Shown here: positions 17,229-57,768 of the stretch, piece by piece
How the letters are laid out: each line of letters starts with the position of its first letter
How positions within the stretch are numbered: position 1 is the stretch's first letter
Source of the DNA: Acidimicrobiaceae bacterium
GTDB taxonomy: Bacteria; Actinomycetota; Acidimicrobiia; Acidimicrobiales; RAAP-2
Direction: 5' to 3'
Length of the DNA stretch: 64,000 bases
Assembly: GCA_003133685.1 (NCBI GenBank)
Contig: PKYQ01000023.1
Location: forward strand, 20,075-84,074
The notes under the pieces: model-generated
The model's input: only the letters and a program-made list of their open reading frames with translations
Told to the model about the DNA's origin: nothing
Databases searched by the model: none
Position numbers and translations under genes: made by a program

Positions 17229-17878
17229 GACGTCTCCTTTGGTGGCGCGAATGCGTTGAAGGCTCCGAGCATTGTGACAAGTTGCTGGGCGCGACCGAAG
17301 ATGGTGAGCGCGCGCTCGCGATCGCCATCGAGGTGGGTGAGCATTTCGAGCCCGAGGAAGAGCGCCACGATGGTGTACGCAACGTCGCCTGCCGGTAGCA
17401 ACGAGGCGAATGGTGAGTCGCCGAAGGTCTTGTCAATCGCGTCCTGCGTGAAGGTGAACCACGGACCGATGCGCGTGGCGACTTCAGCACCGAGGCCCGG
17501 AGTAGAAGAAGCACCGGCAATCATTTCCACCAGGACCGTGACGTGCCCCGTGTCGAGGTCTTCTCGGAAAATCTGTGCAGCTACGTCCATGAGTTCATTG
17601 GGCGACGTCACGTTTTTCACGGCTGCGCTGAACCTGACCATCCGGTCATCACTGACCGCATCGAGGGCCGCCAAAAGGAGACTGGTCACCGATCCGAAAT
17701 GGTAGAAGACGAGTCCCTGGTTCAGCCCGGCTCGCTCGGCGATCGCGCGAGCGCTGGCGCCTGAGAAGCCGTTCTCTTTCAGTGTCTCGATGGCGGCCTC
17801 GATGAGGGCACGGCGGGTGTTCGCTGATCGCTCGGTGCTGCCCGATTGGACCTTGCTGGGGGAACCTGACTTGGCCAT
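17225..17878 (-). CDS. TetR family regulator
   Basis: GFSGASARAIAERAGLNQGLVFYHFGS. Confidence 0.92.
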   Translation of the reverse strand: MAKSGSPSKVQSGSTERSANTRRALIEAAIETLKENGFSGASARAIAERAGLNQGLVFYHFGSVTSLLLAALDAVSDDRMVRFSAAVKNVTSPNELMDVAAQIFREDLDTGHVTVLVEMIAGASSTPGLGAEVATRIGPWFTFTQDAIDKTFGDSPFASLLPAGDVAYTIVALFLGLEMLTHLDGDRERALTIFGRAQQLVTMLGAFNAFAPPKETS

Positions 17879-17896
17879 TTCGATCTTCCTTCTATA

Positions 17897-17912
17897 TTGA
17901 GCATTTGCTCAA
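17897..17912. promoter_or_regulatory. Putative TetR operator
   Basis: TTGAGCA-TT-TGCTCAA, perfect inverted repeat 19 nt upstream of the start. Confidence 0.65.
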
Positions 17913-18110
17913 AGCATACACTCAATTTAGTGAAAGTCAAGTGGGCGTGAGTGGACACTCGTCGAGAACCGGCAAACTCCGCCGCCGTTGCGGACATCGC
18001 TTGCGTTTCAACTCGGTCTGTTCGTGGACGCCAGTCGGTCCCGGTCGACTCTTAACCAATTTCGATGCGAGGGCCGCTAGGACGTCGGGGCCGTCGGCGC
18101 CCGCCCGTCT

Positions 18111-19631
18111 CTAAAGGTCGTTGCCCGCGTAGGAGAGATTGAAGCTCTTGTTCACCAGCGGAAAGTCAGGAACGATCGTGTCGGACAACGCGAGGGGCAA
18201 GGCGGGCCACGCGAAGAACGAGGGATCCACGATCTTGACCCGGCGCAGCGCCCCGTCGGGGCCGAAGTCGACACGGTGCACGATCGCCCCCCGCCATCCT
18301 TCGGCGATGCCCGTGCCGTGACCCTCTCGAAGCTCAACCGCATCCCCCTGGACGTCGAGCGGTCCCTCGCGCGCCACCAGGTCGGTGAGCAGGCGAAGCG
18401 ACGCGTCGACCTCGTCACAGCGAACCTCGAATCGGGCGAGTACGTCCCCGTCTTGGCGCGAAACGGAGCGAAAGCTGGCGGGCATCTCGATGAACGAGTG
18501 CGCGACACGGGCGTCATCGTCGAGACCGGAGGCGCGCGCGACGACTCCGAGCACGCCCAGGTCACGGGCCTGGTCGATCGACAGCACTCCCGTGCCGGTG
18601 AAGCGGTCCATCACGATGCTGTTGGAACGTGCCAAATCAATCAACTCGTGGAACTGTGCCCCGATGTCCTCGAGCTCCTCTTTGGTTGGCAGAGAACGCA
18701 GCGTGGCGCCGCCGTAGTGCACCCCACTTCGCAATAAGCGATGGCCCGTCACCGACTCGTTGAGCGTCAAGAGGCGTTCGCGCAGCGTGAGGGCGCGCGC
18801 GTTGGCGAAGCCGAAGCCGACGTCGTTGCACAACGCGCCGACGTCGGCGACGTGGTTGTACACGCGTTCGAGTTCGAGTAGCACCGCGCGTAGTTCGCGG
18901 GCGCGCTGGGCGACTTCGATGTCGAGGGCCTCTTCGACAGCCTGAGCGAAGGCAAGGCCGTGGCCGACGGCACTGTCGCCGGAGATCTTCTCGGCGAGAT
19001 TCAGGGCGAAGGTCAAATCCTGGCCCTCGAAGAGCCGCTCGATGCCCTTGTGAACGAACCAGAGACGGGCCTTCATGCGCACGATGGTCTCGCCCAATAC
19101 CCAGAAACGGAAGTGCCCGGGCTCGATGACGCCCGCGTGCACCGGGCCGACCGGTATTTCGTACAATCCTTCGCCCTCGACCTGGGCAAAGGGGAAGGAG
19201 TCGGCCTCGGGGTTCATCGGGGGTTGGGGTCCCGCGTCGTGGCGCATCGGGTGCCATCCGAGGGGCCAGTGCTGGTGCAGCACGAGGCGGCGAAGTTGGG
19301 GATGACCAATCGGTTCGACGCCAAAGAGGTCGTGCATCTCGCGCTCGAATCGACTGGCGGCGTAACTCAGGTGGGCAATCGAAGGAAGTCGGGGCTGGCG
19401 GGTATCGAGCAGCACCCGAAGTTCGATTCGTTGGTCGGGCGGACCGTCGACGAACAAGTAGACGACTTCGATGACCGCGCCGTCGTGGCGCGCACACACG
19501 AGCGCGAGCCGAAATCCGGCCTCGAGTAGCAGAGCGGCAACCTGTGTGAGTTCGTTGCCATCGCAGTCGAGCACCGCGCGAGGCGTCCGCTCGCTGAGGA
19601 GCCGTTGCACGTTGAACGCGTGCGCCGTCAT
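18111..19631 (-). CDS. hycE: Ehr complex large subunit (HycE/HyfG-like, NuoC+D) lacking Ni-binding cysteines
   Basis: ERE.HDLFG, GPVHAGVIEPGHFRF, HKGIERLFE, GWRGAIVH, VDPSF. EKISGDS and NKSFNLSY replace both CxxC motifs. Confidence 0.9.
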   Translation of the reverse strand: MTAHAFNVQRLLSERTPRAVLDCDGNELTQVAALLLEAGFRLALVCARHDGAVIEVVYLFVDGPPDQRIELRVLLDTRQPRLPSIAHLSYAASRFEREMHDLFGVEPIGHPQLRRLVLHQHWPLGWHPMRHDAGPQPPMNPEADSFPFAQVEGEGLYEIPVGPVHAGVIEPGHFRFWVLGETIVRMKARLWFVHKGIERLFEGQDLTFALNLAEKISGDSAVGHGLAFAQAVEEALDIEVAQRARELRAVLLELERVYNHVADVGALCNDVGFGFANARALTLRERLLTLNESVTGHRLLRSGVHYGGATLRSLPTKEELEDIGAQFHELIDLARSNSIVMDRFTGTGVLSIDQARDLGVLGVVARASGLDDDARVAHSFIEMPASFRSVSRQDGDVLARFEVRCDEVDASLRLLTDLVAREGPLDVQGDAVELREGHGTGIAEGWRGAIVHRVDFGPDGALRRVKIVDPSFFAWPALPLALSDTIVPDFPLVNKSFNLSYAGNDL

Positions 19632-43330: not shown

Positions 43331-43441
43331 TCAAACTCCCTCGACGTGCTTGGTTTACCACGAAGCGGAATCGAACGACCGTCGCGCCCGATGGTTGAGG
43401 TCTCTTACTTGTCGGATTGAATCAAGGTTGCGAATCTGCGA

Positions 43442-43467
43442 TGTCGGGGGCCCGACGTAACAGTTCT
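43442..43467 (+). repeat. Junction motif copy d
   Basis: TGTCGGGGGCCCGACGTAACAGTTCT. Confidence 0.9.
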
Positions 43468-44791: not shown

Positions 44792-44874
44792 TGCAGTTCA
44801 GAGTTCGCCGGGACTCGCAAACTTGTCAGAGAATATCGTGCGACTGAAAGACGAGTCGATCGAGTCTCAATGGG

Positions 44875-44900
44875 TGTCGGTGGCCCGACGACCCAGTTCT
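44875..44900 (+). repeat. Junction motif copy e
   Basis: TGTCGGTGGCCCGACGACCCAGTTCT(GCAG). Confidence 0.88.
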
Positions 44901-45048
44901 GCAGCCCCGCATTGGCGACTCACGCACACGAAATAGTCACCGAATATGACGCCAGCGATTCATCTTCCAATTACTCACCTTCAAGGCGGAGGTCATCTAC
45001 GTGACCATGATCTCCGACGATAACTCGACGGTCAAGGTTCGAATGATG

Positions 45049-45067
45049 ATACTATTCAAATTAGTTC
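45049..45067. promoter_or_regulatory. Putative YtrA-type operator directly before gntR
   Basis: ATACTA-TTCAAAT-TAGTTC; near-identical to 52553-52571. Confidence 0.6.
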
Positions 45068-45068
45068 T

Positions 45069-45416
45069 ATGAATTTCTCTGAAGTTGACCGAAGCGAGCC
45101 AATCGCACTCCACCATCAGGTTGCCGCCGATATTCGTCGCGCGATTGCTGACGGTGAAGCGGCCCAAGGCGAGCGTCTACCGCCGGCGATCGACCTTGCC
45201 GCTGTCCTTGGGGTGAACAAGAACACGGTCATCCGAGCGCTGCACATCCTGCGTGAGGAGGGAGTCCTTGACTTCACGAGGGGGCGAGGCATTCGAGTGG
45301 TTGGCACCCCTGCGCGAAGTGCTCTTCTCACGAAGATGAACGAGCTCGTCTCTTTGGCGCGCGAGCAGGGATATCGCAAAGACGAGTTGGCTTCAATGAT
45401 TCTTTCGGTCCAGTAG
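45069..45416 (+). CDS. GntR family regulator, short YtrA-like type
   Basis: GERLPP..DLA..LGVNKNTVIRAL..LR.EG...TRGRG; 115 aa. Confidence 0.92.
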   Translation: MNFSEVDRSEPIALHHQVAADIRRAIADGEAAQGERLPPAIDLAAVLGVNKNTVIRALHILREEGVLDFTRGRGIRVVGTPARSALLTKMNELVSLAREQGYRKDELASMILSVQ

Positions 45417-45428
45417 CGAGGTTTCGAC

Positions 45429-46712
45429 ATGTCTCTCTTGACCGAAAAGAAAGATCAACTCTTGGTCGAGGAGATCGTGGTCCTCATTCCCGAAGCGCGC
45501 ATGCGCCAGCGGCGTCGGTGGTTACGTACGGGCTTGATCGTCCTCTTGGTGAGCGCCGTGGTACTTCTTGTTTCCCTCTACGTCGGTGGCTTAGGTAATC
45601 GGTCCACCACACCACCTGGGCCGAGTTCCGCGTTGACTCAAAGCTCAGTCACCCCTTTGCCGGTGGGAACCGTGATTAACGCGTCATCGGTCGTCGCCAT
45701 TCAGATGTTTACCGCAACGCAGGGAGTCGCAATCGCGACCTTCTGGAACAAGAGCTTCACGACGATTGGGAACTCGTATTTGACGACGACCGTCAACGGC
45801 GGAACGTCGTGGCGGATCACGGGCGTGTTGCCAACTGGCTCGTGGGCCGCCCTCGGTCAGGACACAGGACTAATCGCATTCGTCTCGCCCCGAGAGGGTT
45901 ACATCGCACAGCCAGCGCCTCATGGCCCCCTATTCACTTCCAACGGGGGTCGCACGTGGAGGAGCGTCGCATTCGCGGGTGAGACCACCTCACTGTCGTT
46001 GTCTAAGGGTGACGTCGTCGTGAGCGCCGAACGTTGCCCCACCGGGTCGGTGGGTACCAATCCGTGCGTGACTCGTCTAGGCACTTTCCCACTGGGGTCA
46101 CTGACGCCGACGAGTGCCACCGTCATTCCATCCTTGTTGGCTGGATCTACGAAGGTTGCGCCGCAGGTACTCGCGTTGTCGGGCTCCATTGGAATGGCGG
46201 TGGAGGGTTCGACCCTCATCGCGACGTCGGACTCGGGAACTTCGTGGCGTCGAGTCACCAATCCCTGTCCTGGGGAGGGACCGGGCAAAGCGCAACTGGC
46301 AAGCGATTCTCGCTGGTACATGCTGTGCGGACGCGGTGTGGGAATGATGAAGGCGTATAACTGGCTCTACAAGACCGCCGACGGTGGTCGAACGTGGACA
46401 CTGGTTGCGAAAGGTTCACCACTGCGCGATGTCGGAACTGGCAACATCGGACCTTACGCCGTCAATGCCTTCGGCGTGAGCAATGATGGCCGCGAAATGT
46501 GGATCGATGGCGGCCCTGGATTCCTCGAAGTCAGTTCAGACGGAGGACGTCAATGGCGATTCGCCGGCACAATCGGTGCGAAGACGAATATCAACGGTCC
46601 CTATTTCGTGAGTGTCGGTCACGAAGTGTGGATGCCAATCGAATTCGGCGGGCTCGTTCGAGCGACTCGGGCATCCTCTTGGAAGATTGTGGCCGAGTCT
46701 TCGTTCTCGTGA
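45429..46712 (+). CDS. Membrane-anchored BNR/Asp-box beta-propeller
   Basis: N-terminal LIPEARMRQRRRWLR plus TM; five S/T-x-D/N-x-G-x-x-W boxes. Confidence 0.85.
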   Translation: MSLLTEKKDQLLVEEIVVLIPEARMRQRRRWLRTGLIVLLVSAVVLLVSLYVGGLGNRSTTPPGPSSALTQSSVTPLPVGTVINASSVVAIQMFTATQGVAIATFWNKSFTTIGNSYLTTTVNGGTSWRITGVLPTGSWAALGQDTGLIAFVSPREGYIAQPAPHGPLFTSNGGRTWRSVAFAGETTSLSLSKGDVVVSAERCPTGSVGTNPCVTRLGTFPLGSLTPTSATVIPSLLAGSTKVAPQVLALSGSIGMAVEGSTLIATSDSGTSWRRVTNPCPGEGPGKAQLASDSRWYMLCGRGVGMMKAYNWLYKTADGGRTWTLVAKGSPLRDVGTGNIGPYAVNAFGVSNDGREMWIDGGPGFLEVSSDGGRQWRFAGTIGAKTNINGPYFVSVGHEVWMPIEFGGLVRATRASSWKIVAESSFS

Positions 46713-46739: not shown

Positions 46740-47081
46740 GTGATGAAGTCGCTCATCCAACATCTAGAGAAATTCACTTCGCCCGATTCAGAAGCCCGTG
46801 TTGTCATCGGCAGGGAAAGTTCAACCCTAACCAGGGACGCACTTCAAGGTTCGTGGGAGAGAGCGCGTTTGGCCATTGGGCGACCGGACCTAAGGCTCCA
46901 CGACATGCGTCACACCGGGTTGACTTTGGCGGCAGCGACGGGAGCTACGACGTCAGAACTGATGCACCGCGCCGGACACGCCTCCGCACCCGCTGCACTT
47001 CGGTATCAGCATGCAACTAGAGATCGTGACCGGCGACTATCAGAAGCGCTGGAGGCCACGATTCCCGACCCGGAGATTTAG
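46740..47081 (+). pseudogene. Tyrosine integrase 3' remnant (about 113 codons)
   Basis: RDALQGSWERARLAIG.PDLRLHDMRH...GH...RYQHA, near-identical to the C-terminus of the intact integrase. Lacks the N-terminal domains and catalytic R/K. Confidence 0.92.
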
Positions 47082-47097
47082 GGCGGTACCACAATGT

Positions 47098-48348
47098 TCA
47101 AATTCCGCAATGCAAGTTTGAGAGCGGAAAGCTGAGAGCGGATGTCTCCGTTCCACGGTCCGTTCGTATGGGCGCAAGGAAAGTCACCACCAACCTCGAG
47201 TCACTGGACTGCATGGCGACAACAGGGTTTTGCTTGGTTGCTGTCGGCAACGGCGCACTCGCAGCGCACCACGCATTCGAGTCCGGCTTCAGGATTTCAA
47301 GGTGCTCGGCGGCCTCAAGTGGAGAGCCAGAGACCGCAATGAGAACTCCGTTGGCCGTAATCGTCATTACCTGTCCGAACGGAGCGAACGTTCCTCCGAC
47401 GGGCGCTCCGTCGATTTTCGGCAGTGAAACTGTGGTCCAGTTGATTCCATTGCGGGTGTAGAGGAGAGCGTCCGGTCGGCTGCGGTCGATGAGGAATTCG
47501 TCTCCTGATGTCGTGGCTACGAGCTGCTGGCTGCCGCATTGGCTCACGCTCGAGACGGCTCCGGCCGAGCGCCATCGAGTTGTGGTCGTGCCCTGTCCCG
47601 AGGCAACGACGAGAACCGACTGCTGCCACTCGGACATCCCACAAGCCCCCTGAGGCGACTCCGGGCCGAAGATCACACAAGTCTTACTCGCTGTGCAACC
47701 CAAGCGCAGGTCCGTCCACGAATGCCCGCCAGTTGACGACGACGCTGCAACGAATGAGGCTGTTTGTCCCGTCTTAAGTGGAAAGAAGTAGTTGCGCGAG
47801 TAGAGCAACGCGACGCCGCCGAGTCGCTCGTCGAATCCTGCAAAGTCGGTCAACGAGTAGCCACGAGGAGGCGGTACGAACCGCCAACTCTTACCCAAGT
47901 TTGAGGTTACGAGCGCGACATCGTAAGCCGGCGGAATCGATTCACCGTGACTCGCTTGGAAGCCGGCATAGACGGTCTTCGGATGGCTGGGATCGAGTGC
48001 GATGTTTTCGCACGTAACGACCACCTTCGAGCCCCCAGACAAACTAGGCAGTCCCAGATGGGAACGGCTCAGCATCGGCTCCACAGAACTATCCGGGACA
48101 AGAATTGTCTTGTCACTGCCTGCAGCAATCTCCACTCCTTTTTTGGAGCACCACGCATAGGTCGCACTCCCGGGTTGGGCGGCAATGGGGCTGCCCCACC
48201 CAGCAGGCTGGATGAGTAGGGGCCGGACAACTCCCAGGGACGCCCACGGTATCGAAGGGCCATCAGTCGTGGCCATCGAAGGCGTCGCGGTAACGGCGCT
48301 AATCGCAATCGTGGCGACAGTGAGAAATACTCGGCGAAAGATGACCAC
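47098..48348 (-). CDS. Secreted beta-propeller-like protein with Asp-box-like repeats
   Basis: Signal peptide; TSNLGKSW, SSTGGHSW, TRNGINW; several Cys pairs. Confidence 0.78.
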   Translation of the reverse strand: MVIFRRVFLTVATIAISAVTATPSMATTDGPSIPWASLGVVRPLLIQPAGWGSPIAAQPGSATYAWCSKKGVEIAAGSDKTILVPDSSVEPMLSRSHLGLPSLSGGSKVVVTCENIALDPSHPKTVYAGFQASHGESIPPAYDVALVTSNLGKSWRFVPPPRGYSLTDFAGFDERLGGVALLYSRNYFFPLKTGQTASFVAASSSTGGHSWTDLRLGCTASKTCVIFGPESPQGACGMSEWQQSVLVVASGQGTTTTRWRSAGAVSSVSQCGSQQLVATTSGDEFLIDRSRPDALLYTRNGINWTTVSLPKIDGAPVGGTFAPFGQVMTITANGVLIAVSGSPLEAAEHLEILKPDSNAWCAASAPLPTATKQNPVVAMQSSDSRLVVTFLAPIRTDRGTETSALSFPLSNLHCGI

Positions 48349-48784: not shown

Positions 48785-49399
48785 ATGCGGACATTTCCTG
48801 TAGTGGGATCACCAAAAGAAGAGTCCGCAGCTTGGGCTGCATCACTAGAGAACGACGGGAACGCCTTCGCCGAGGTCTTCGATCTGCACCGCGACCGTGT
48901 TTATCACCACGCCCTACGAATGACCGCCAACGTCCACGATGCGGAAGACGTCGTTGCAGCCGCATTCTTCGAACTATGGCGCCTGCGGAAGTCTGTTCGA
49001 GTGGTCGATGGTTCCGTGTTGCCCTGGCTTCTGGTCACCACTACAAATCTCTCGCGAAATCTGACTCGTGGAATCCGTCGTTATCGAGCACTGATCGCGT
49101 CATTGCCACGCGCCATAGAAGTGCGAAGTTCGGAGGATGCTGCGTTGGAAAAGATTGAAGAGCTGCGACTCGCCGCAAACCTGCGCGAAGCGATGAGCAC
49201 TCTCGCGCCTGCGGATGCTGCCCTCATCATTCTCACTACCTTCGAGCATTACTCGCTCGCAGAAGTTGGCGCTGCCCTTGGCATCTCTGACGGCGCTTCA
49301 CGAACACGCCTTCACCGCGCTCGGACGCGCCTAGGGGTTGCGCTCGAATCGTTGGAACAAGTTGATGGCGACTTCATGACGAAGGGGAGGAATCGATGA
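48785..49399 (+). CDS. ECF sigma-70 factor
   Basis: DAEDVVAAAFFELW...PWLL (region 2); SLAEVGAALGISDGASRTRLHRAR (region 4). Confidence 0.93.
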   Translation: MRTFPVVGSPKEESAAWAASLENDGNAFAEVFDLHRDRVYHHALRMTANVHDAEDVVAAAFFELWRLRKSVRVVDGSVLPWLLVTTTNLSRNLTRGIRRYRALIASLPRAIEVRSSEDAALEKIEELRLAANLREAMSTLAPADAALIILTTFEHYSLAEVGAALGISDGASRTRLHRARTRLGVALESLEQVDGDFMTKGRNR

Positions 49400-50211
49400 G
49401 CACCTTAGAGATGGATCCGGTATTCACCGCAGCACTTCGCGAAGCACTGATTAGCAACGCAATATCGATTCCCCAAGCGAAGCGCCGATGGCGTTGGCGC
49501 TTCGGTGCCGGCATGTTCGTGACCTTGTCGATTGCGGCTGGAGGTGTGGCACTGGCTACGGGTCTGTTTTCACAACCCGGTGCCCCTATTGACACCCAAC
49601 TCGGCAGCATCGTTGTTGCTACACGAACGGGTACAGCGACGATCGAAGTCGGCACACCGCCCGCAGGAGCAACCGATATTTCACTCACGCTGACCTGCCT
49701 CACGGCGGGCTTGTTCGATTTTCCCAACGGTTCGAGCATGACGTGCAACGCGGCCGATCTAAGCCGACCATCAGCTCAACGCTCGGGGAGCGAAGTCGTG
49801 CCAATTAGTCCCGGCTCTGACATGGTGACGATCGAGACGAGTTCGAACGCAACGTGGACGTTGCAAGCCGTCTTCGTGAATCGGGTCCCGACCACTTGGG
49901 GCGTCAACGCGAACGGTCAAACTTACGGTGTATCGAACCAGCAAGGCACCCCTGATCTCATATCCGTCGTGATCGACGACGGCGCGAAATATGGCTATGT
50001 TACGAAGAGCGAATTGAACTGCGCAGCAGGTGGTGACGTCACATCGTCGGCGGAGGCTCAAGCTTGGGACAAAGTGAGCCAGAACCTGAATGTTTCCATT
50101 CCCGCTTACGAGAGCGATGGCGTGACGGTCGTCGGTACCTTCACTGTTGGTAGTGCCACTGGACCGAATGCAAAGACGGTCCCGCTCTCGTCTCTCTCGT
50201 TGGGCTGCTAG
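49396..50211 (+). CDS. Putative anti-sigma factor, single TM with extracytoplasmic domain
   Basis: ATGA overlap with the ECF gene; basic patch plus TM; C-terminal NANGQTYG...PDLISV domain. Confidence 0.75.
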   Translation: MSTLEMDPVFTAALREALISNAISIPQAKRRWRWRFGAGMFVTLSIAAGGVALATGLFSQPGAPIDTQLGSIVVATRTGTATIEVGTPPAGATDISLTLTCLTAGLFDFPNGSSMTCNAADLSRPSAQRSGSEVVPISPGSDMVTIETSSNATWTLQAVFVNRVPTTWGVNANGQTYGVSNQQGTPDLISVVIDDGAKYGYVTKSELNCAAGGDVTSSAEAQAWDKVSQNLNVSIPAYESDGVTVVGTFTVGSATGPNAKTVPLSSLSLGC

Positions 50212-50264
50212 ACAAATCCAGAACCGCATCCCTCCTCTAAATCAAGAGACTGAGTGAGGGTACT

Positions 50265-50290
50265 GGTCGTGGGCCCGACATAACGGGTCT
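50265..50290 (+). repeat. Junction motif copy f, between convergent stops
   Basis: GGTCGTGGGCCCGACATAACGGGTCT(GCTA). Confidence 0.8.
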
Positions 50291-51021: not shown

Positions 51022-51250
51022 GATTCAATCCTCGATGAACGGCGCCAAGGCAAACTGAGGCTCGTTTCTGCTGAGCGTAGTGCAATGTGGGCCTCTGTGC
51101 TTCTCCTGCTGCGCGGAAAGAGTCACCGGCAGTCAGCCGGGTTACTGATCAGAAAAGTCACCACCCCATCGCATCGCCAGTCTCTCCGGGACGAGACAAC
51201 GGTTCTGTTGCCGGACAATGGCGGTTCGCCATGTAGTCGACCCTCACCGG

Positions 51251-51276
51251 TGTCGGGGGCCCGACACAATAGTTCA
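51251..51276 (+). repeat. Junction motif copy g
   Basis: TGTCGGGGGCCCGACACAATAGTTCA(GCAA). Confidence 0.88.
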
Positions 51277-51325: not shown

Positions 51326-51679
51326 TTAGGGACCGTCGATACCGAACACGTTGCCGAAGGGATCCACGAACTGGGCGATAATCCTTTCGGGCGACAGAGT
51401 CAATGGTCCGCGATGTTTGGTTGCTCCGAGAACTATCGCCTCATTCATCGAAGACTGGAAATCCGATGACGCAAAATACACAACCGGAGTTCCTCCCTGC
51501 GGGTTGCGCCCGTCGTCAGAGGGATGGAATCCATACTCCGTCTTGCTGGCGACGAACCAACAGAACCCGTTCTCTTCGTTGACTAACTGGGCTGGTACAT
51601 TAAGCAACTCCGACCACCAGTGAGCCACTTCGCTGGGTTTCTTGCAAAAGAGCATCACAGTTTTGATTTCGCCATTCAT
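51326..51679 (-). CDS. VOC/glyoxalase family protein
   Basis: WWSELL, PVVYF, LGAT...GP, FVDPFGNVFGI. ATG 51679. Confidence 0.85.
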   Translation of the reverse strand: MNGEIKTVMLFCKKPSEVAHWWSELLNVPAQLVNEENGFCWFVASKTEYGFHPSDDGRNPQGGTPVVYFASSDFQSSMNEAIVLGATKHRGPLTLSPERIIAQFVDPFGNVFGIDGP

Positions 51680-51747
51680 GCTTCCGACACTACGGTTCAA
51701 TTGGTCAGGCCGACGTCGCAGAAGTTCCACCCTCGAAGAGTGCGGCG

Positions 51748-52524
51748 TCAGCGGACCGACTGTCCTGTACGAACCCACTCATGACGAGTGTCATTCAAGA
51801 CGTAGGTGGCGTAACTTGCCTTTGGCAGGTCTCCGTCAGGGAACGGACGTATCCGAATTCCAATGCTGACGCTGACAGTCTCGTTACTGATTATCCAGTC
51901 ACTAGCGGGGTTCAAGTACTGGTACCAATGGCGTCCTCTGTCGGTCGAGACGTCGATAACGGCATTGCTGACCATCACTATGGCTGATGGTCCATCTGGA
52001 ATTACTTTGTTCACGAAGTAGATACCTCCGCCAACCCAGTCAGTCGCGAGCATCGGGCCGGCCGCCCTCCAGTGGGCTCCGCCGTCGATGCTGCGAACGG
52101 GAAACAGTCCTCCGTCGCCGTTCACTCGCCACACGCCCCACTCGACGCTCGCAATCGGCGACTTGATTTCGATCCACCGCAATTGCGTAGCGGGAAGAAT
52201 CGTCCCCCAAGGTAGAGCACGAACTTGAACGTCAATCCCACCCTCGTACATTCCACGTCGCATCTTGAGCGTCGCAGGGTAGGGCGATGTCTTAGCGGCT
52301 GCACCAGTCTTCGGTTCGGTGTTGACCGGTGTGTTCACGTGCTTTGGCGGACCATTGTTGCCGGCTGCGAGGAAACCCGTCACCGTTGCCACCATTGCAG
52401 CGATTACCACAGCGAGGTCGCGTTGCCGGCGACGGCGAGAAGCCGCTCGAGCTTCTCTAATGAGGAGTTCCGCGGGCTCCGTCGTCTCACCGATTTCGTG
52501 TTGACGGGTCGGAGTGATGATCAT
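51748..52524 (-). CDS. Membrane-anchored exported protein with Asp-boxes
   Basis: ATG 52524 with GAGAAAGG RBS; ELLIREARAASRRRRQR plus TM; RSIDGGAHW, VSTDRGRHW. Confidence 0.8.
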   Translation of the reverse strand: MIITPTRQHEIGETTEPAELLIREARAASRRRRQRDLAVVIAAMVATVTGFLAAGNNGPPKHVNTPVNTEPKTGAAAKTSPYPATLKMRRGMYEGGIDVQVRALPWGTILPATQLRWIEIKSPIASVEWGVWRVNGDGGLFPVRSIDGGAHWRAAGPMLATDWVGGGIYFVNKVIPDGPSAIVMVSNAVIDVSTDRGRHWYQYLNPASDWIISNETVSVSIGIRIRPFPDGDLPKASYATYVLNDTRHEWVRTGQSVR

Positions 52525-52552
52525 GGGCCTGCCTTTCTCAGCACGTCTTATG

Positions 52553-52571
52553 GTACTATTCATACTAGTTC
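52553..52571. promoter_or_regulatory. Putative YtrA-type operator in the 48-nt divergent gap
   Basis: GTACTA-TTCATAC-TAGTTC (6-7-6 inverted repeat, one mismatch). Confidence 0.65.
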
Positions 52572-52572
52572 T

Positions 52573-52920
52573 ATGCAAACACTCAAAGTCAACAAAGATG
52601 AACCGGTCGCATTGCACGATCAAGTGGCCGCCGAGATTCGTCGAGCCATCGCTGACGGCGAGGCTGCTCAAGGCGAACGTCTTCCCCCGGCAGTAGACCT
52701 GGCGACGGTACTCGGCGTGAACAAGAACACGGTGATTCGTGCTTTGCATATTCTGCGCGACGAGGGACTGCTCGACTTCACGAGAGGGCGTGGCATTCGA
52801 GTAGTTGGATCTCCCCAACGCGGAGCGGTGATGACCCGCATCGATGAACTGCTCGTCTTTGCCCGGACACAAGGGTATCGCCACGATGAAGTTGTTGCCC
52901 TGATCCAAGCTCGGAGTTGA
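52573..52920 (+). CDS. GntR family regulator (YtrA-like), paralog of 45069
   Basis: True start ATG 52573, 115 aa; the HTH is nearly identical to 45069-45416. Confidence 0.92.
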   Translation: MQTLKVNKDEPVALHDQVAAEIRRAIADGEAAQGERLPPAVDLATVLGVNKNTVIRALHILRDEGLLDFTRGRGIRVVGSPQRGAVMTRIDELLVFARTQGYRHDEVVALIQARS

Positions 52921-52984
52921 AGATGCCTGTGCATGTACAGTCAGGTTTGCGCTGGGACAAGAAGATTCGAGAGTTAGGGGATCC

Positions 52985-53827
52985 ATGACCCTTTCGCCAA
53001 CTCGTAGCAATCCCACCGGAGAGACCCCCGACTCTGCAGAGCTGCTCATCAAAGAGGCTCGGCGTGCCAAGCGTCTGCGTCGATTGCGAAATATTGCAAT
53101 TGTGTTTGTCGCATTGGTGGTTGTCACTGTGATCTCCGTCATTCAGACACTGAACAAAACTCCTTCAAAGCCGAAGCCCGAGACGGCGGTTGTGAAGTTC
53201 GTCGATTCGATGAAGCACGCCAACGGCACTCGATTCGTTGCGACCTATCGCGTTCATCATTACGACTGGATGGACAATGGCGTCATCACGATGGCCCAAA
53301 TTCCGAGCCCACCTGGCACCAAAGCCACAACCAACAGCGACGGCTATTCGGGTAGTGGCAAATACGCCTACATCTATCGAAACGCAGACGGTCGTATCTC
53401 GCAGTGGATCAAAATCGGAACCAACGTGAGCGGGTGTGCGATGCCGGCCAAGGGCCCAAGCCGTCAGATGCAGTGTTCGAGACTCAGTCCGTATCTCCCT
53501 TCAAATGGCTTTGCCTATGCAGATGTTGGGTTCGTGCCGACGTACGTGATGCAATCAATTCTCACGTCGAACGGGATCGGCAAATCCCTGAAATTGACGA
53601 CGAGGGTCTCCACTCAATTCGGTCGCCTGACGTGTCTGACGCAAACCTTCCCTTCGACGATCCAAACCACATGCATAGACCGATCGGGCTACGTCGTACT
53701 TTGGAGGTACCACAACTTCCACTATTCGAGTTCGGCGACCCTTACCGCTTTCAATCGTCATCCGACTGCCAGCGATTTCAGAACATTAATTAAGCCGACG
53801 AAACCACTGGTCTTGCCAGGATTGTAA
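52985..53827 (+). CDS. Membrane-anchored exported protein
   Basis: ELLIKEARRAKRLRRLR plus TM, then a beta-rich Cys-containing domain. Confidence 0.8.
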   Translation: MTLSPTRSNPTGETPDSAELLIKEARRAKRLRRLRNIAIVFVALVVVTVISVIQTLNKTPSKPKPETAVVKFVDSMKHANGTRFVATYRVHHYDWMDNGVITMAQIPSPPGTKATTNSDGYSGSGKYAYIYRNADGRISQWIKIGTNVSGCAMPAKGPSRQMQCSRLSPYLPSNGFAYADVGFVPTYVMQSILTSNGIGKSLKLTTRVSTQFGRLTCLTQTFPSTIQTTCIDRSGYVVLWRYHNFHYSSSATLTAFNRHPTASDFRTLIKPTKPLVLPGL

Positions 53828-53842
53828 ATCTGATCGCGCGGA

Positions 53843-53868
53843 AGTCAGGGACCCGAAGCCACAGAACG
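53843..53868 (+). repeat. Junction motif copy i (degenerate, 17/26)
   Basis: AGTCAGGGACCCGAAGCCACAGAACG, in a 69-nt intergenic gap. Confidence 0.5.
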
Positions 53869-53896: not shown

Positions 53897-55117
53897 GTGA
53901 GAAAGGATTTGAGAACAACTCAACTGATCGTCAGTTTGTTCCTCGTACTTTCGCTGATTCCAATATCAAGCGTGGCGGGTGCGTCCTCCGCTCAACTGGA
54001 CCCGATTTCCCTGTCATTTCCGAACCCCCAAAAGGGCTACGTCCTGTCGCTCTATGACTGCGCCGCCAAAACTTGCGCCACCCTGCGCGGTACCGTCGAC
54101 GGAGGCTCCTCGTGGAAGGCTGTGCCAATTCCGAGTGAGCTGGGTCGAAGACTCCAGTTGGAATCGTGGGGCACGTACGGCACCACGTACGCGACGCTCA
54201 CCGTTCACTTCGCTGACGCGAAGAACGGTTGGATTTACGGCACCGTTCCCGCCCCCGTAACGCCGACTACGGCCAGTCCGAATTCGGTGAATCGTGTTTG
54301 GTCAACCCATGACGGTGGCAAAAAGTGGCGACAAGTTCGCCTTGATCCACTCGCGCTCACGGCTGGCGTCGTCCAGATGGCCACGCACGAAGCGTGGACG
54401 TACCTTTTCGGAGGATCCAATACTGGTGGCGCCTACCTGCTCGGCACACGTTCGAACGTGGACCAGTGGTCGAGGAAATCGAGCGCGGAAATGAGCATGC
54501 CCGCAGGAGGCACGCAATTGGTAGGTTCCTTCACGTTTGCGGGCGACAACGGTTGGTTTGTGGCCGGGAACGATCGTAGTTTCACCGCCAGCGCGCGGCT
54601 CTTGACTAACGGCACTTGGGGCGCGTGGAACGGACCCTCGTTTGAAGATTTCGGAGCGAGCTATACCCCGATTTGCGCCGTGACCGACAACGTCCTGCTC
54701 GCCGAGGGCGAGAGCGCCGAGATCGTGTACCCACCGGCCTCTTCGGTGCCTTCGGGATGGAATGACGGAGCGTCATGGCTCTTCATTTCCTACGACGCCG
54801 GATCGACATTCAAGCCCTTTCGCAAACTATCGAGTTCCTATCAAGGGAGTTATTACTCCACCGTGCCGGGTCTACCAGCGGTGCCGGGACCGGGGACGAT
54901 TCTCCTTCAGCAGGCGTCAAATTCGAGTTACCACCTGGTGCGCAGTACGAACTGGGGACGGACCTGGAACGTCGTTTTCGACGGCCCTATCTCTCAAGTT
55001 CTTTTCACCAGTCGTACAACCGGCTTTGCGATCGCAAAGGAAAGGTCGAGTCATACGACTTACTCGGTCTATCGAACGATCGATGCTGGAAGCCACTGGA
55101 ACAGAGTCAGTCAGTAG
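53897..55117 (+). CDS. Secreted BNR/Asp-box beta-propeller (406 aa)
   Basis: Signal peptide; STHDGGKKW, RSTNWGRTW, RTIDAGSHW. Paralog of 42110-43330. Confidence 0.87.
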   Translation: MRKDLRTTQLIVSLFLVLSLIPISSVAGASSAQLDPISLSFPNPQKGYVLSLYDCAAKTCATLRGTVDGGSSWKAVPIPSELGRRLQLESWGTYGTTYATLTVHFADAKNGWIYGTVPAPVTPTTASPNSVNRVWSTHDGGKKWRQVRLDPLALTAGVVQMATHEAWTYLFGGSNTGGAYLLGTRSNVDQWSRKSSAEMSMPAGGTQLVGSFTFAGDNGWFVAGNDRSFTASARLLTNGTWGAWNGPSFEDFGASYTPICAVTDNVLLAEGESAEIVYPPASSVPSGWNDGASWLFISYDAGSTFKPFRKLSSSYQGSYYSTVPGLPAVPGPGTILLQQASNSSYHLVRSTNWGRTWNVVFDGPISQVLFTSRTTGFAIAKERSSHTTYSVYRTIDAGSHWNRVSQ

Positions 55118-55535
55118 ATCGCATCACCGACGCAGTCCCCTTGTTTGACGTATATGTGAGTTCATCACGCTCATCTTCTTGAGCCATAGGTCCTCTTAAT
55201 TCCTACTGCCCGAGGACGGCGTGCGCGAAGCGCCAAGCCGTCCGTTCGGGCTACCTGGGTGATCATCAAAATCAATTAATACTTCGCAAATTCTGAAGAT
55301 ATTTGCATGCGCTCTTAAAGTTTCTGTTCGAAAACGCGGAAATGGGTGTGGCTGTCTTATAGAGGGCGAAAATCTCGTTCCTCTGTAAGGAGCACTATGA
55401 GACTGCCCATTTGCATCGGAGACCAGTTTCGATGATCGGTGACGACCCTCGGACTTATCAATTCAAGATCTCTGGACGACTACGTGATGATAGCGACCGT
55501 TGTCACTGGCTAATTGGAAGAGGAACGAGAAATTG

Positions 55536-56624
55536 ATGACTCGACGTCACTTTGGATCTGTCAGAAAGAGACCTTCGGGTCGCTGGCAGACCCTTTTCTG
55601 GCAAGACGAACGCGTTCAGTCGGCGGGCACGTTCGCGACAAAAGCTGACGCGCAGGCATTTCTATCCGCACTGGAAACGGATCTTCGAAGAGGTAAATGG
55701 ATTGATCCTCGAGGAGGTGAAGTAACGCTATGCGACTACGCCAATGCTTGGTTGATACAGAGAACTGAATTGGCGGAACGAACTGTGGAGTTGTACCGCC
55801 ACGTCCTTAGCAATCACATACTTATTGCGCTGGGCACTTCAACCGTGACCGGTCTCAGTCCAACCAAAATTCGCTCTTGGCACGCAAACATCGCGAAAGA
55901 TCATCCCGCGACTGCGTCGAAGGCATACCGTCTGTTGTCGTCAATTATGCGAACCGCTATCATCGACGGAATTATTCTGAGTTCGCCTTGCAAGGTTGAG
56001 GGCGCCGGCACAGAACACGCCGCCGAAAGGCCGATCGCTTCCGCCGAGGAAGTTGAACTTCTGTCACGGGCGATGCCAGATCATCTCCGAATCGTTGTAC
56101 CACTTGCCACATGGTGCCAGTTGCGCCGAGGTGAGATTCTCGGACTGCGAAGAATGGATGTTGACCTGAAGCAACACGTGATTCACATTCTTCAAAGCCG
56201 CACGTTTGGAATGGATGGCAAGCAGATAATGAAACTGCCAAAAACGGATGCAGGTCGGCGAACAATCTTCGTCCCCCGACCAGTGATGAAGTCCCTCGTT
56301 CGACATGTTGAGATATTCGCTGGGCCAGAACCAGAAGCCCTGGTAGTCGTTGGAAGGGGAGGTGCAAATCTCTCAAGGGATGCACTCCAAGGGTCGTGGG
56401 AAAGGGCGAGGCTGGCAATCGGTGGACCTGACTTACGACTTCACGACATGCGTCACACGGGTTTGACGTTGGCGGCGGCAACGGGAGCAACTACGGCGGA
56501 ATTGATGCATCGAGCGGGTCACGCCTCTGCGCCCGCGGCCCTCCGGTATCAGCACGCGACCAGAGATCGTGACCAGCGCCTATCAGACGCCCTTGAGGGC
56601 ATGATCCACGTCCCAGAGGATTAG
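55536..56624 (+). CDS. int: Tyrosine integrase with N-terminal arm-binding domain
   Basis: RRHFGSVRKRPSGRWQ N-terminus; catalytic set intact: LRRGE (R), PKT (K), HDMR, GH, YQH. Confidence 0.96.
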   Translation: MTRRHFGSVRKRPSGRWQTLFWQDERVQSAGTFATKADAQAFLSALETDLRRGKWIDPRGGEVTLCDYANAWLIQRTELAERTVELYRHVLSNHILIALGTSTVTGLSPTKIRSWHANIAKDHPATASKAYRLLSSIMRTAIIDGIILSSPCKVEGAGTEHAAERPIASAEEVELLSRAMPDHLRIVVPLATWCQLRRGEILGLRRMDVDLKQHVIHILQSRTFGMDGKQIMKLPKTDAGRRTIFVPRPVMKSLVRHVEIFAGPEPEALVVVGRGGANLSRDALQGSWERARLAIGGPDLRLHDMRHTGLTLAAATGATTAELMHRAGHASAPAALRYQHATRDRDQRLSDALEGMIHVPED

Positions 56625-56691: not shown

Positions 56692-57768
56692 TCAAGGTGC
56701 TTCGGTTCCGAACCTTGCCATTCGCCGCGCCGCCTCAATCTCTTGAATGCGCGCGTGCGCTGCGACACAAGCAGGGCATGCATCTCTGCCGTCGGGGTCC
56801 CTCACGGGATGGAACGTTCGCCCACAAAGCGCGCGGACGGTGCAGCCAACAACTACCGCTTCGGTGAGCCCTTCCTTCATAACGATGTGACACCACACAC
56901 CAGATCCATCTGTCAAGTCGGGTGGATCAACGGCCATTGCGGGTGCGCCACGAATGACATAGTCGGCGCAAACAGCCTCAATCCATCTCTCCGGCACCAC
57001 CACCCACCAACTTGGCACCTGCGACGAATTCATATCGGGAACGACGTCCCAATCGGAGCGCGATATGCCGGGCATAGCGTCCTGAACTTCGAGGAGAACA
57101 TCTTCAAACTTTGGCCCCGTGTAATTGATTATCTCGATCGAAATCGTTAAGTCGTTTGGATAATCAGGGCCGTTATCGGAGATGTCAACCTGCAACATTG
57201 CGGTGGAACGGAACTCCTGTCTCGATTCGTCGAGGTCAGTTGGCAGTTCCACAGCGACGGTGCGTCGGTCACGAAAGGCGGTGACCACGGCTTCGATGAC
57301 CCGTTCCCGAAGGCTCGCCAGGCGACGTTGCTCAAACTCGAGCAGTAACTCGAGTCGCAGACGCTTCTGGTCTGATTCGGTCGGCAAAAATATTTCTGAG
57401 CCGTTCACGCACAGTCGTTCAAATGACTTATAGAAGTCATCGCGATCTCCATCTCTTCGGAATCCTGCAGCACACAGCCAAAGCACGCCATTGGCATCGA
57501 TGTGAGCGGCCCCTCGAAACTGTTCTATCTTGACCCGATACCACAAGCGATCCCGAACGGCCGAGATTTTCAGCGCCATGAGTTCGTCGGCGGACATCGA
57601 AAGTAGTCGGTTCGCTTTTGCGATCAGTGGGTGTTCAATCTGGCTTAAGGGAATCGAACCAAGATCGGCTAAGTTCCCAGAACTCAAAGCGGACCTCTGA
57701 TTCGCATCTTTGAGGTCCGCTTTGAGTTCGTCAAGTAGACACCTAATAGTGGGACGCGCCGGATTCAA
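56692..57768 (-). CDS. Putative toxin: RelE-like N-terminal region fused to C-terminal DUF3039-like Zn-binding domain
   Basis: WYRVKIEQFRGAAHI...WLCAAG resembles RelE/ParE strands (tentative). C-terminal HIV.KE.LTEAVV.G..VRALCG...P.RDP....CPAC resembles DUF3039. Confidence 0.6.
   Translation of the reverse strand: MNPARPTIRCLLDELKADLKDANQRSALSSGNLADLGSIPLSQIEHPLIAKANRLLSMSADELMALKISAVRDRLWYRVKIEQFRGAAHIDANGVLWLCAAGFRRDGDRDDFYKSFERLCVNGSEIFLPTESDQKRLRLELLLEFEQRRLASLRERVIEAVVTAFRDRRTVAVELPTDLDESRQEFRSTAMLQVDISDNGPDYPNDLTISIEIINYTGPKFEDVLLEVQDAMPGISRSDWDVVPDMNSSQVPSWWVVVPERWIEAVCADYVIRGAPAMAVDPPDLTDGSGVWCHIVMKEGLTEAVVVGCTVRALCGRTFHPVRDPDGRDACPACVAAHARIQEIEAARRMARFGTEAP

Follow-up and report, generated by a model that had tools for sequence, protein, structure and literature searches.

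YtrA-type regulators of the GntR family are widespread and lack an effector-binding domain; to our knowledge, no ligand has been described for YtrA of Bacillus subtilis or for YtrA of Sulfolobus, and the only effector we know of is the peptide recognised by PmtR. Transcription factors co-encoded with an inhibiting membrane protein are represented by the LytTR systems HdrRM and BrsRM of Streptococcus mutans; these differ from the system described below in the family of the regulator, which is an activator, and in their inhibitors, which carry no exchangeable ectodomains.

Among the described YtrA-type proteins, that of Sulfolobus acidocaldarius (6SBS) is a mini-GntR composed of a wHTH and two C-terminal helices, with a palindromic operator over the transcription start and autorepression; no ligand has been found for it, and the genes that it represses encode putative membrane proteins of unknown function (PMC6746942). 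The link to ABC transporters is typical of the YtrA subfamily and not obligatory (PMC6746942); Tsypik et al. (2016; cited in PMC6746942) noted a group of such regulators in actinobacteria whose genes lie next to membrane-protein genes. For PmtR of Staphylococcus aureus, likewise a mini-GntR repressor of YtrA type, the effectors are short helical peptides, the phenol-soluble modulins (PSM), whose binding frees the protein from its operator (PMC5080381), which shows that a regulator of this type can respond to a helix; these peptides are free in the cytosol, and the operon is one for an ABC exporter. In Bacillus subtilis, the autorepressor SdpR, of the ArsR family, is encoded together with the polytopic membrane protein SdpI, which captures it in response to an outside ligand, leading to derepression of the operon; sequestration of the same kind has been tentatively proposed for GntR-linked SdpI homologues (PMC2910880). 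In the ECF sigma/anti-sigma pairs, finally, a small regulator gene is tightly linked, and often translationally coupled, to the gene of an N-in single-pass protein with a conserved cytoplasmic N-terminus and a hypervariable extracytoplasmic domain. No description of the motif or of the modularity presented here, and no GntR membrane anti-repressor, was found in the literature.

The locus under study belongs to an Acidimicrobiaceae bacterium (GCA_003133685.1, contig PKYQ01000023.1, positions 20,075-84,074 of the forward strand); this whole stretch of 64,000 nt is referred to as the window. The data basis consists of metagenome-assembled genomes throughout, and start codons are predictions. The features considered, namely the regulators (G), their membrane-anchored neighbours (M) and the associated sequence elements, are the following:

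45046-45070, no strand: putative operator 1, a 25-bp imperfect palindrome, ATGATACTATTCAAATTAGTTCTAT, upstream of G1
45069-45416, forward strand: G1, YtrA-type mini-GntR of 115 aa (PF00392)
45429-46712, forward strand: M1, membrane-anchored partner of 427 aa, 12 nt downstream of G1
45483-45521, forward strand: cytoplasmic motif of M1, LIPEARMRQRRRW, residues 19-31, with the TM helix next (about 34-56)
51748-52524, reverse strand: M2, membrane-anchored partner of 258 aa, divergent from G2, start codons 48 nt apart
52420-52470, reverse strand: cytoplasmic motif of M2, ELLIREARAASRRRRQR, residues 19-35
52550-52574, no strand: putative operator 2, ATGGTACTATTCATACTAGTTCTAT, within the 48-nt divergent M2/G2 control region
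52573-52920, forward strand: G2, YtrA-type mini-GntR of 115 aa (PF00392)
52985-53827, forward strand: M3, membrane-anchored partner of 280 aa, 64 nt downstream of G2
53039-53089, forward strand: cytoplasmic motif of M3, ELLIKEARRAKRLRRLR, residues 19-35

A previous sequence-only reading had drawn attention to this arrangement, and the coordinates, gene lengths, motifs and repeats were all recovered where it had placed them. The 2.5-Mb genome contains three genes for 115-aa YtrA-type GntR proteins, G1 and G2 in the window and G3 on a different contig (C31); a six-frame regular-expression scan of the same genome returned exactly four ORFs in which the motif precedes a TM segment, namely M1, M2, M3 and M4, the last lying on C31 and divergent from G3. 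A GntR gene adjoins all four of these ORFs, which are served by the three G paralogs. No ABC transporter gene lies beside G1, G2 or G3, in keeping with the earlier observation on the window, and none is conserved in 80 related loci; a classical YtrA-ABC operon is present separately, on contig C12. A simple scan for promoters and terminators gave no signal over background.

As to the regulator, PF00392 matches G1 with 49.9 bits and G2 with 51.9 bits (cutoff 27), so that both proteins, 72% identical to each other, are GntR paralogs, as had been supposed. Sulfolobus YtrA (6SBS) is a full-length match of the G profile (positions 2-107, E 5e-14); in the AF2 model of G1 a wHTH is followed by two helices (81-99 and 104 onwards), and the best Foldseek matches of this model are all of YtrA type (6SBS, 4HAM, 4R1H, 2EK5, 3BY6 and 3NEU). 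By length, by profile and by the two C-terminal helices of the model, G belongs to the YtrA subfamily, and it is predicted to be a dimer. The scores against two NCBIfam equivalogs fall far below the respective cutoffs (46.5 bits against 170 for the Rv1152 family and 27.3 bits against 200 for PmtR), the resemblance to the PmtR model being weak. The remark of the sequence-only reading that control of ABC transporters is the usual role of YtrA regulators needs qualification, given the actinobacterial group located beside membrane-protein genes already noted by Tsypik et al. (2016, cited in PMC6746942). G is classed as a variant within this pairing, recognised but as yet unexplained, of YtrA regulators and genes for membrane proteins, and it shares with Sulfolobus YtrA both the neighbourhood of membrane-protein genes, in place of an ABC transporter, and the lack of a known ligand; unlike the partners of the Sulfolobus protein, those of G are single-pass, carry a defined common cytoplasmic motif and freely swap their ectodomains.

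The three M proteins of the window carry the motif at residues 19/20-35 (LIPEARMRQRRRW in M1, LIREARAASRRRRQR in M2 and LIKEARRAKRLRRLR in M3), and in each of them the sole hydrophobic segment, a strong one (Kyte-Doolittle 2.2-2.7 over 19 aa), follows directly; the claim that all three neighbouring genes place one cytoplasmic motif before a TM helix is thus borne out. What the M proteins have in common is confined to about 35 cytoplasmic residues. M2 and M3 are similar in residues 1-62 alone (47% identity, E 4e-12), M1 and M2 are weakly similar over the N-terminal module and part of the ectodomain (E about 1e-3 to 1e-2), and M3 matches neither M1 nor M2 past the N-terminal module, which agrees with the earlier view that the ectodomains are largely unrelated. 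That of M1 has weak, sub-threshold matches to BNR/Ycf48-type propeller families (PSII_BNR at 24 bits, below the cutoff), a score that rises to as much as 46 bits in loci whose ectodomains are homologous to that of M1 (same BLAST cluster); that of M2, of about 200 aa, has a single weak sub-threshold Asp-box match, and that of M3, of about 225 aa, matches no known family. The start of M2 at 52524 is backed by its N-terminus (MIITPTR...), which aligns with orthologous modules. All 31 orthologs of M3 are named 'hypothetical', and on two independent contigs the gene order is the same, with a DUF4232 protein on the reverse strand followed by a 115-aa GntR and an M3-like protein on the forward strand. 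In 30 aligned M3 orthologs, L21, I22, E24 and A25 are invariant and R26 is conserved in at least 90%; the AF2 model of M3 based on 30 orthologs shows one continuous helix, residues 17-57, running through motif and TM segment, at a mean pLDDT of 40, too low to define the ectodomain fold.

Over a wider set of proteins, the exchange of the outer domains is extensive: 112 ectodomains, many of them without a family match, fall into 39 BLAST clusters and include at least eight unrelated Pfam families (DUF4232, BNR/Sortilin/Ycf48, PD40, NHL, WD40, SGL, SecDF_P1_head and pentapeptide repeats), as expected from the interchangeable sensor domains that had been imagined for this locus. Ectodomains of these types are encoded in the same genomes next to ECF sigma genes as well (SecDF_P1_head, for instance, in locus L123), and an ECF pair of similar architecture is found in the window itself (48785-50211). 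That the M proteins are ECF anti-sigma factors was considered and rejected, since every family test failed: no anti-sigma domain was matched in M1 or M2, the match of M3 to Sigma_reg_N (18.3 bits, cutoff 26.3) spans chiefly the Arg run and the TM helix, and the gene next to M1-M4 and about 100 homologues is a GntR gene and not a sigma gene. The M proteins likewise have no match to SdpI or DUF1648 domains.

The cytoplasmic module has a well-defined consensus. In the four ORFs of the genome it reads E-L-L-I-x-E-A-R-x-R-x-R-R-R-R, followed by one TM helix; more widely, the roughly 35 shared residues end in the helix E-[LAV]-L-[IF]-x-E-A-R-x-R-x-R-R-R-[RW], which runs straight into the TM helix. 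Among 102 unique modules, L is conserved in 100, E and A in 101 each and R in 97; for every conserved residue 4-6 synonymous codons are in use, which indicates selection at the protein level; a DNA- or RNA-level cause of the conservation is ruled out by this high codon diversity. E24 is invariant among 104 representatives of 50%-identity clusters. A word-indexed search with residues 1-60 of M3 returned almost only M3 orthologs, and the census was taken from an exhaustive profile search, by which carriers of the module in public data amount to about 2,513 50%-identity clusters; in nearly all of the best-scoring 150 matches the module stands at or near the N-terminus. A topogenic signal of general use, which the sequence-only reading had allowed for, is unlikely on two counts: the rest of the genome is free of the motif, and its conservation is one of the protein sequence.

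The pairing of G and M holds well beyond this genome. In 24 congeneric genomes G adjoins 25 of the 27 strong matches to the N-module, and 300 sampled genomes of the class yielded just one further strong match (G182), which also adjoins G; conversely, an adjacent N-module ORF was present in 74 of 80 loci drawn from the genomes of other species. The co-occurrence check proposed at the outset thus gave 4/4 here, 25/27 among the congeneric genomes and 74/80 in reverse, and a motif common in genes with no GntR neighbour, which had been named as the outcome that would speak against a link, was not what was observed; the result favours a functional one. The exceptions are six G loci without M and two M genes without G, one of the latter (G007:C13) having a decayed motif, KDARPKARHRR. 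G and M are always immediate neighbours although their arrangement varies: 65 pairs are divergent, with start-to-start gaps mostly of about 38-55 nt, and 25 are co-directional and mostly spaced by -4 to +31 nt. No further gene, be it for a protease, an ABC transporter or a kinase, is conserved in the 80 loci, in which apparent extra gene 'clusters' proved to be shadow ORFs of G, and the flanking genes vary from contig to contig. The variable positions of the cytoplasmic segment follow the divergence of G even between proteins with unrelated ectodomains, their identity dropping from about 0.3 to 0.16; adjacency and co-divergence are equally expected under linkage and co-duplication alone.

G1 and M1 share one reading frame, interrupted by a single TAG, a situation present in 5 loci of the G1 subfamily. 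A read-through fusion of G and M was rejected, since the 7 in-frame cases among about 25 co-directional pairs correspond to the chance rate. In an AF2 model of a G1-TAG-M1 N-terminus fusion, obtained with a small paired alignment (pTM 0.50), the G part folds as a YtrA type and alpha5, linker, motif and TM segment form one long helix.

Both GntR genes of the window are preceded by the same inverted repeat, as had been reported, namely ACTA-N7-TAGT ending 4 nt before the ATG (...GATACTATTCAAATTAGTTCTATG for G1 and ...GGTACTATTCATACTAGTTCTATG for G2). Operator 1 overlaps a -10-like box, TAcTAT, and the first two bases of the start codon of G1. The upstream regions, 84 unique ones, share the consensus AT[G/A]G[T/A][A/G]CTA-N7-TAG[T/C]AC[C/T]AT, centred at -11; the arm pair -18/-4 covaries (A-T 25, G-C 21), to a degree reached by none of 2000 shuffles, and in all of these loci the 25-bp palindrome is kept over the -10-like box and the start codon. 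This overlap is indicative of autorepression and points to G as a putative autorepressor acting at its conserved palindrome, which would liken it to Sulfolobus YtrA also in its predicted operator.

The pairing, together with the shared helix, suggests, short of proof, a new route by which a repressor could receive transmembrane signals. From these data we infer repression by G, a direct contact between G and M and the direction of signalling. G, a wHTH with two short C-terminal helices and no ligand pocket, would most likely bind as a dimer to the 25-bp palindrome over the -10-like box and its own near-leaderless start codon; where the M gene is divergent, the same palindrome falls inside the shared control region of 40-55 nt, and G would thus repress itself and its M neighbours. 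The M proteins are N-in and single-pass, with outside domains swapped among many unrelated folds, and G would dock on their cytoplasmic helix; whether it is retained at the membrane may be set by the state of the ectodomain, perhaps through interference with the alpha4/alpha5 dimer interface of G, and capture of G would derepress the module, much as in SdpI/SdpR and in anti-sigma/sigma pairs. We give even chances to the docking of G by the helix of M, on the pattern of these systems. The best functional analogy is SdpR/SdpI, from which the proposed pair differs in that G is a GntR and not an ArsR protein and in that M has one TM helix and an exchangeable ectodomain; with respect to the ECF pairs, the regulator is a repressor in place of a sigma factor, and the cytoplasmic part of M, of about 35 aa, has no anti-sigma domain; with respect to PmtR, the helix would be tethered to the membrane. 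A more specific form of the proposal, put forward tentatively, sees in the ELLIxEAR-polyArg helix a portable 'anti-GntR' adaptor, which would tether a pocket-free YtrA repressor to the membrane, possibly by imitating its alpha4 dimerisation helix, and would turn any fused ectodomain into a transmembrane sensor. A weak hint of homology between the module and G comes from the alpha4 heptad: MAFFT placed the ELLIKEAR of the module onto helix alpha4 of G, and the heptad L-x-x-E-A-R-R of the module equals the alpha4 consensus of a sister GntR clade; by hhalign, the comparison of the module was marginal with the sister clade (P 0.018) and not significant with the ingroup G (P 0.17).

The strongest competitor, which we regard as rather unlikely, is that G is only a dedicated autorepressor of lineage-specific surface-anchored binding proteins, the helix serving M itself (in signal-anchor insertion, orientation, oligomerisation or the binding of an unlinked cytoplasmic factor) and the signal reaching G by some other way. 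An operator over the promoter fits simple autorepression, Sulfolobus YtrA represses membrane-protein genes with no partner interaction known (PMC6746942), linkage alone gives adjacency and co-divergence, and the continuous helix of the M3 model, from motif through TM segment, is compatible with such a role. Furthermore, mini-GntRs of the sister clade, with the same operator type, are paired with polytopic DUF1648 or other membrane proteins devoid of the motif, a situation which parallels the GntR-linked SdpI homologues; any docking determinant would therefore need to have arisen anew, or else the theme common to the sister clade and G may simply be that of a repressor of membrane-protein genes. 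Yet a topogenic or oligomerisation element does not require L, E, A and R to be conserved across some 2,500 clusters, and it would be expected on other exported proteins, where it is absent; indeed, the secreted BNR-propeller-like proteins of the window (47098-48348 and 53897-55117), weakly similar to M1, lack the motif. Moreover, G is the module's only conserved genomic partner, and, as YtrA-type proteins have no ligand pocket, G would still need another input.

The modular, sensor-like architecture of M would also suit a cytoplasmic helix that binds another, unlinked partner (a protease, a kinase or RNA polymerase), M signalling through it and G setting only the level of expression; this is improbable, given that the 80 loci show no other conserved neighbour and that presence or absence of the module tracks G across genomes. 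Least probable of all is an export or sorting signal (a Tat-like twin-arginine anchor or a lineage-specific insertion pathway) with G merely regulating the cargo class, since, although the Arg run immediately precedes the hydrophobic segment and several beta-propeller ectodomains could in principle fold before export, the S/T-R-R-x-F-L-K (Tat) consensus is absent from the 102 modules, the hydrophobic segment combines length with strong hydrophobicity, no conserved AxA site was noticed by eye in the aligned modules, conservation is highest before the Arg run (at L, I/F, E and A), GntR neighbours alone carry the motif, which other exported proteins lack, and no dedicated sorting enzyme is conserved nearby.

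The module, a self-contained unit of two or three genes, occurs mainly in Acidimicrobiia of soil and peat, which are abundant but uncultured. It offers a concrete candidate answer to the question of how YtrA-type regulators sense a signal, namely a 17-residue cytoplasmic helix nearly always encoded beside the regulator, and it comes with more than 2,000 natural variants in which the sensor domain has been exchanged, with a putative operator defined to 25 bp and with three invariant residues. Should the helix not dock, what is left is still a well-defined, previously undescribed family of membrane-anchored proteins with a dedicated repressor; should it dock, the module would represent a new transmembrane signalling architecture and a compact, portable part for synthetic biology. 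If, in addition, the adaptor reading is true, G and M would form a new two-protein class of transmembrane signalling, the repressor counterpart of the ECF sigma/anti-sigma pairs, and would explain in general terms how control is exerted on YtrA-type regulators that have no effector domain.

The window, and other genomes besides, are confirmed to carry a modular system of tightly linked GntR and membrane-protein genes, for which both the operator and the cytoplasmic motif can be specified. It pairs YtrA-type mini-GntR regulators (G) with single-pass membrane proteins (M), whose cytoplasmic N-terminal segment (N-module) precedes a TM helix and an extracytoplasmic domain (ectodomain). Every sequence used derives from a metagenome-assembled genome, with gene starts as predicted; the genome that contains the window comprises 2.5 Mb in 33 contigs.

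Genes of the system in the window (from the ORF listing and a direct reading of the sequence)
45069-45416, + strand: G1, regulator of 115 aa
45429-46712, + strand: M1, membrane protein of 427 aa, beginning 12 nt past the G1 stop
51748-52524, - strand: M2, membrane protein of 258 aa
52573-52920, + strand: G2, regulator of 115 aa, 48 nt separating its start from that of M2
52985-53827, + strand: M3, membrane protein of 280 aa, beginning 64 nt past the G2 stop

G1 and G2 (72% identical) both score above threshold with the Pfam GntR model (49.9 and 51.9 bits, respectively), and M1, M2, and M3 each contain one hydrophobic segment (about residues 34-57), preceded by LIPEARMRQRRRW, LIREARAASRRRRQR or LIKEARRAKRLRRLR. 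The sequence-only reading had noticed GntR genes beside such proteins, an observation which these five genes confirm and which can now be generalised. M2 and M3 are alike in residues 1-62 only (47% identity), and the similarity between M1 and M2 is weak (E ~1e-3 to 1e-2) and confined to the N-terminal module and some of the ectodomain. A family-model search matched no family to the M3 ectodomain, the fold of which is not resolved in an AF2 model of M3 (pLDDT 40). A 150-aa ORF (51326-51778, -), on the same strand as M2, overlaps its 3' end by ~30 nt.

Elsewhere in this genome, tblastn identified a third 115-aa paralog, G3 (contig C31; 63-65% identity), with a divergently oriented motif protein, M4, carrying AEQLLIEEARRRQRRRQR followed by a TM helix; a six-frame regular-expression search requiring the motif and, with it, a hydrophobic stretch returned exactly four ORFs genome-wide, M1 to M4. 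Among 24 genomes of the same genus, 15 contain the G family, in one to three copies each, and the co-occurrence of motif and GntR that the sequence-only reading had proposed to check with an N-terminal profile was borne out: 25 of 27 strong matches to a 60-column N-module profile (alignment A1) directly adjoin a G gene, so that the motif is not common away from a GntR neighbour (2/27). One of these two orphans (L026; G007:C13:914-1564, -) has a DUF4232-type ectodomain, no GntR neighbour and a decayed motif, KDARPKARHRR, deviating where the consensus is otherwise nearly invariant (VELLIKDARPKARHRRL); the second, an M3 ortholog, lies on a short contig that contains runs of N. The G alignment (A2), run against other species genomes, retrieved at least 533 related loci; in the best 80, at least one immediately adjacent N-module ORF is present in 74, one more has a shortened, degenerate N-module, and no further gene besides G and M is conserved. 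The order DUF4232 protein (-), 115-aa GntR (+), M3-like protein (+) recurs on two independent metagenome contigs with M3 orthologs, in otherwise unrelated surroundings. Across 300 genomes sampled evenly from the class (135 genera), only this genome and one other, again with G alongside, contain a strong N-module, and close relatives of the GntR occur nearly all in metagenome-assembled Acidimicrobiaceae or Acidimicrobiales genomes from palsa, bog, and other soils.

The inverted repeat which the earlier reading had seen ahead of the GntR genes proves to be a 25-bp palindrome, AT[G/A]G[T/A][A/G]CTA-N7-TAG[T/C]AC[C/T]AT, upstream of 84 unique G genes and centred at -11; complementarity of the core arm pairs holds in 70-75 of the 84 sequences, and the pair -18/-4 covaries (A-T 25, G-C 21), a level reached by none of 2000 shuffles. 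Since it takes in a TAcTAT -10-like box and the first two bases of the start codon, it implies, by analogy with the Sulfolobus YtrA site that covers the transcription start (PMC6746942), a putatively leaderless or near-leaderless G mRNA, with the repressor probably seated on the promoter. With start-to-start gaps clustered at 38-55 nt, the 65 divergent M genes share this operator region with G; the 25 co-directional M genes lie mostly at -4 to +31 nt, a spacing suggestive of co-transcription and, in some pairs, of translational coupling. In the G1 subfamily (window 45414-45431; L020, L046, L047, L048) the G stop (TAG or TAA) is in frame with the M start, with exactly four codons between, in 5/5 cases; co-directional pairs as a whole are in frame as often as expected by chance.

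In 102 unique N-modules the consensus is [E/Q]-[L/A/V]-L-[I/F]-x-E-A-R-x-R-x-R-R-R-[R/W], then the TM helix, with motif onset ~18-20 residues past the start codon and occupancies of 100 (L), 101 (E), 101 (A), and 97 (R). Each conserved residue is encoded by four to six different codons; what is conserved is therefore the protein sequence, and the pattern is no side effect of a DNA or RNA signal nearby. Searched exhaustively with the profile, 1.84 billion representative proteins yielded 2,513 clusters (50% identity) at E 0.001 or better, and nearly all of the 150 top-scoring matches have the module at the N-terminus or close to it; over 104 cluster representatives, E24 never varies, and conservation reaches at least 90% at L21, I22, A25, R26, and R30-32. 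Behind this one module, 112 ectodomains from the loci studied fall into 39 BLAST clusters and into diverse Pfam families (DUF4232; BNR/Sortilin/Ycf48 and PD40 propellers; NHL repeats; WD40; SGL; PQQ-like; SecDF_P1_head; pentapeptide repeats), about half falling in no family; the N-module is thus a portable N-terminal cassette ahead of many unrelated extracytoplasmic domains. Like domains in these genomes also occur with ordinary signal peptides or beside ECF sigma genes. The cassette travels with G and not with the ectodomain, since M-M identity at variable cytoplasmic positions falls from ~0.3 (G identity at least 80%, or same locus) to 0.16 (G below 60%), and the similarity of the cytoplasmic segments declines with G divergence even where ectodomains are unrelated.

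Both G/M modules appear to sit in integrated, flexible DNA, given a full tyrosine-integrase-like gene (55500-56624), a 3' fragment 77% identical to its end (46740-47081; repeat D1), and a GC content of 0.55-0.58 across 42-60 kb of the window vs ~0.61 for the genome. Six 28-nt direct repeats (43439-43466, 44872-44899, 50262-50289, 51248-51275, 53840-53867, 57498-57525), most with a GC-rich hairpin core of GTCGGGGGCCCGAC type, are intergenic, just after genes of the low-GC stretch, one of them 13 nt past the M3 stop; possible roles are those of terminators or cassette junctions. An ECF sigma factor gene (48785-49399, +) overlaps by 4 nt a gene (49396-50211, +) for a 271-aa protein with the architecture of M proteins, that is, a short cytoplasmic N-terminus (AALREAL...KRRWRWRF) and one TM helix; it gave no ectodomain Pfam match and no N-module profile match. 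On contig C12, a truncated copy of the M2 ectodomain (16652-17014, -; 57% identity over 118 aa), devoid of the N-module, is divergent from a classical YtrA-type GntR (136 aa; region 17045-19370, +), followed by ABC ATPase and permease genes.

YtrA-type proteins are, to our knowledge, without an effector pocket. The alignment of G with Sulfolobus acidocaldarius YtrA (6SBS, E 5e-14) spans the whole of G; the AF2 model of G, a wHTH plus two C-terminal helices, has only YtrA-type mini-GntRs as best structural matches. For the Sulfolobus protein no ligand was found (PMC6746942), and the single effector known for any YtrA-type regulator is a short helical peptide, that of the PmtR/PSM pair (PMC5080381). 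The most economical reading, which we hold to be evenly poised, is that the cytoplasmic helix docks G and that the state of the ectodomain would set the amount of G free to repress, the same logic as in SdpI/SdpR or anti-sigma systems; it draws on G being the sole conserved genomic partner of the N-module, on protein-level conservation, on the absence of the module from other exported proteins, and on the interchangeable, sensor-like domains. The main rival, in which the role of G is solely that of a dedicated repressor and the helix is there for the M proteins' own needs, is favoured by the motif-less partners of a sister clade of more distant mini-GntRs; we consider it possible, with a clearly lower probability. 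That the helix binds an unlinked partner is unlikely, G being the only partner conserved beside it, and a Tat-like or other export signal, in a module that other exported proteins lack, is unlikely too. AF2 modelling of G with M did not resolve their relation. The N-module heptad L-x-x-E-A-R-R, whose expected frequency in this genome is ~0.001 per 115-aa protein, coincides, as seen post hoc, with the alpha4 (dimerisation helix) consensus of the sister clade (L-x-A-E-A-R-R-x-G); hhalign places its best local match to that clade exactly there, weakly (P 0.018), and gives no signal against ingroup G, so that a decoy helix is conceivable and statistically unsupported.

The sister clade (E 1e-17 to 1e-36; L113-L120, L126, and L127, from other Acidimicrobiia or Actinomycetota genomes) extends to other families of the class and phylum. 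Its partners are polytopic DUF1648 membrane proteins (6/8 class-level loci examined) or other small membrane proteins, and in the two loci whose upstream region was read (L126, L127) the palindrome sits right against the start codon, just as it does in the main clade. Because these regulators pair with motif-less membrane proteins, the theme of a YtrA-type repressor with a membrane protein is older than the N-module. This association was noted, unexplained, by Tsypik 2016, as cited in PMC6746942; where SdpI homologues are linked to GntR, PadR or ArsR regulators, it has been suggested tentatively that the regulator is sequestered at the membrane (PMC2910880). The G/M system is a new variant of this known but unexplained association.
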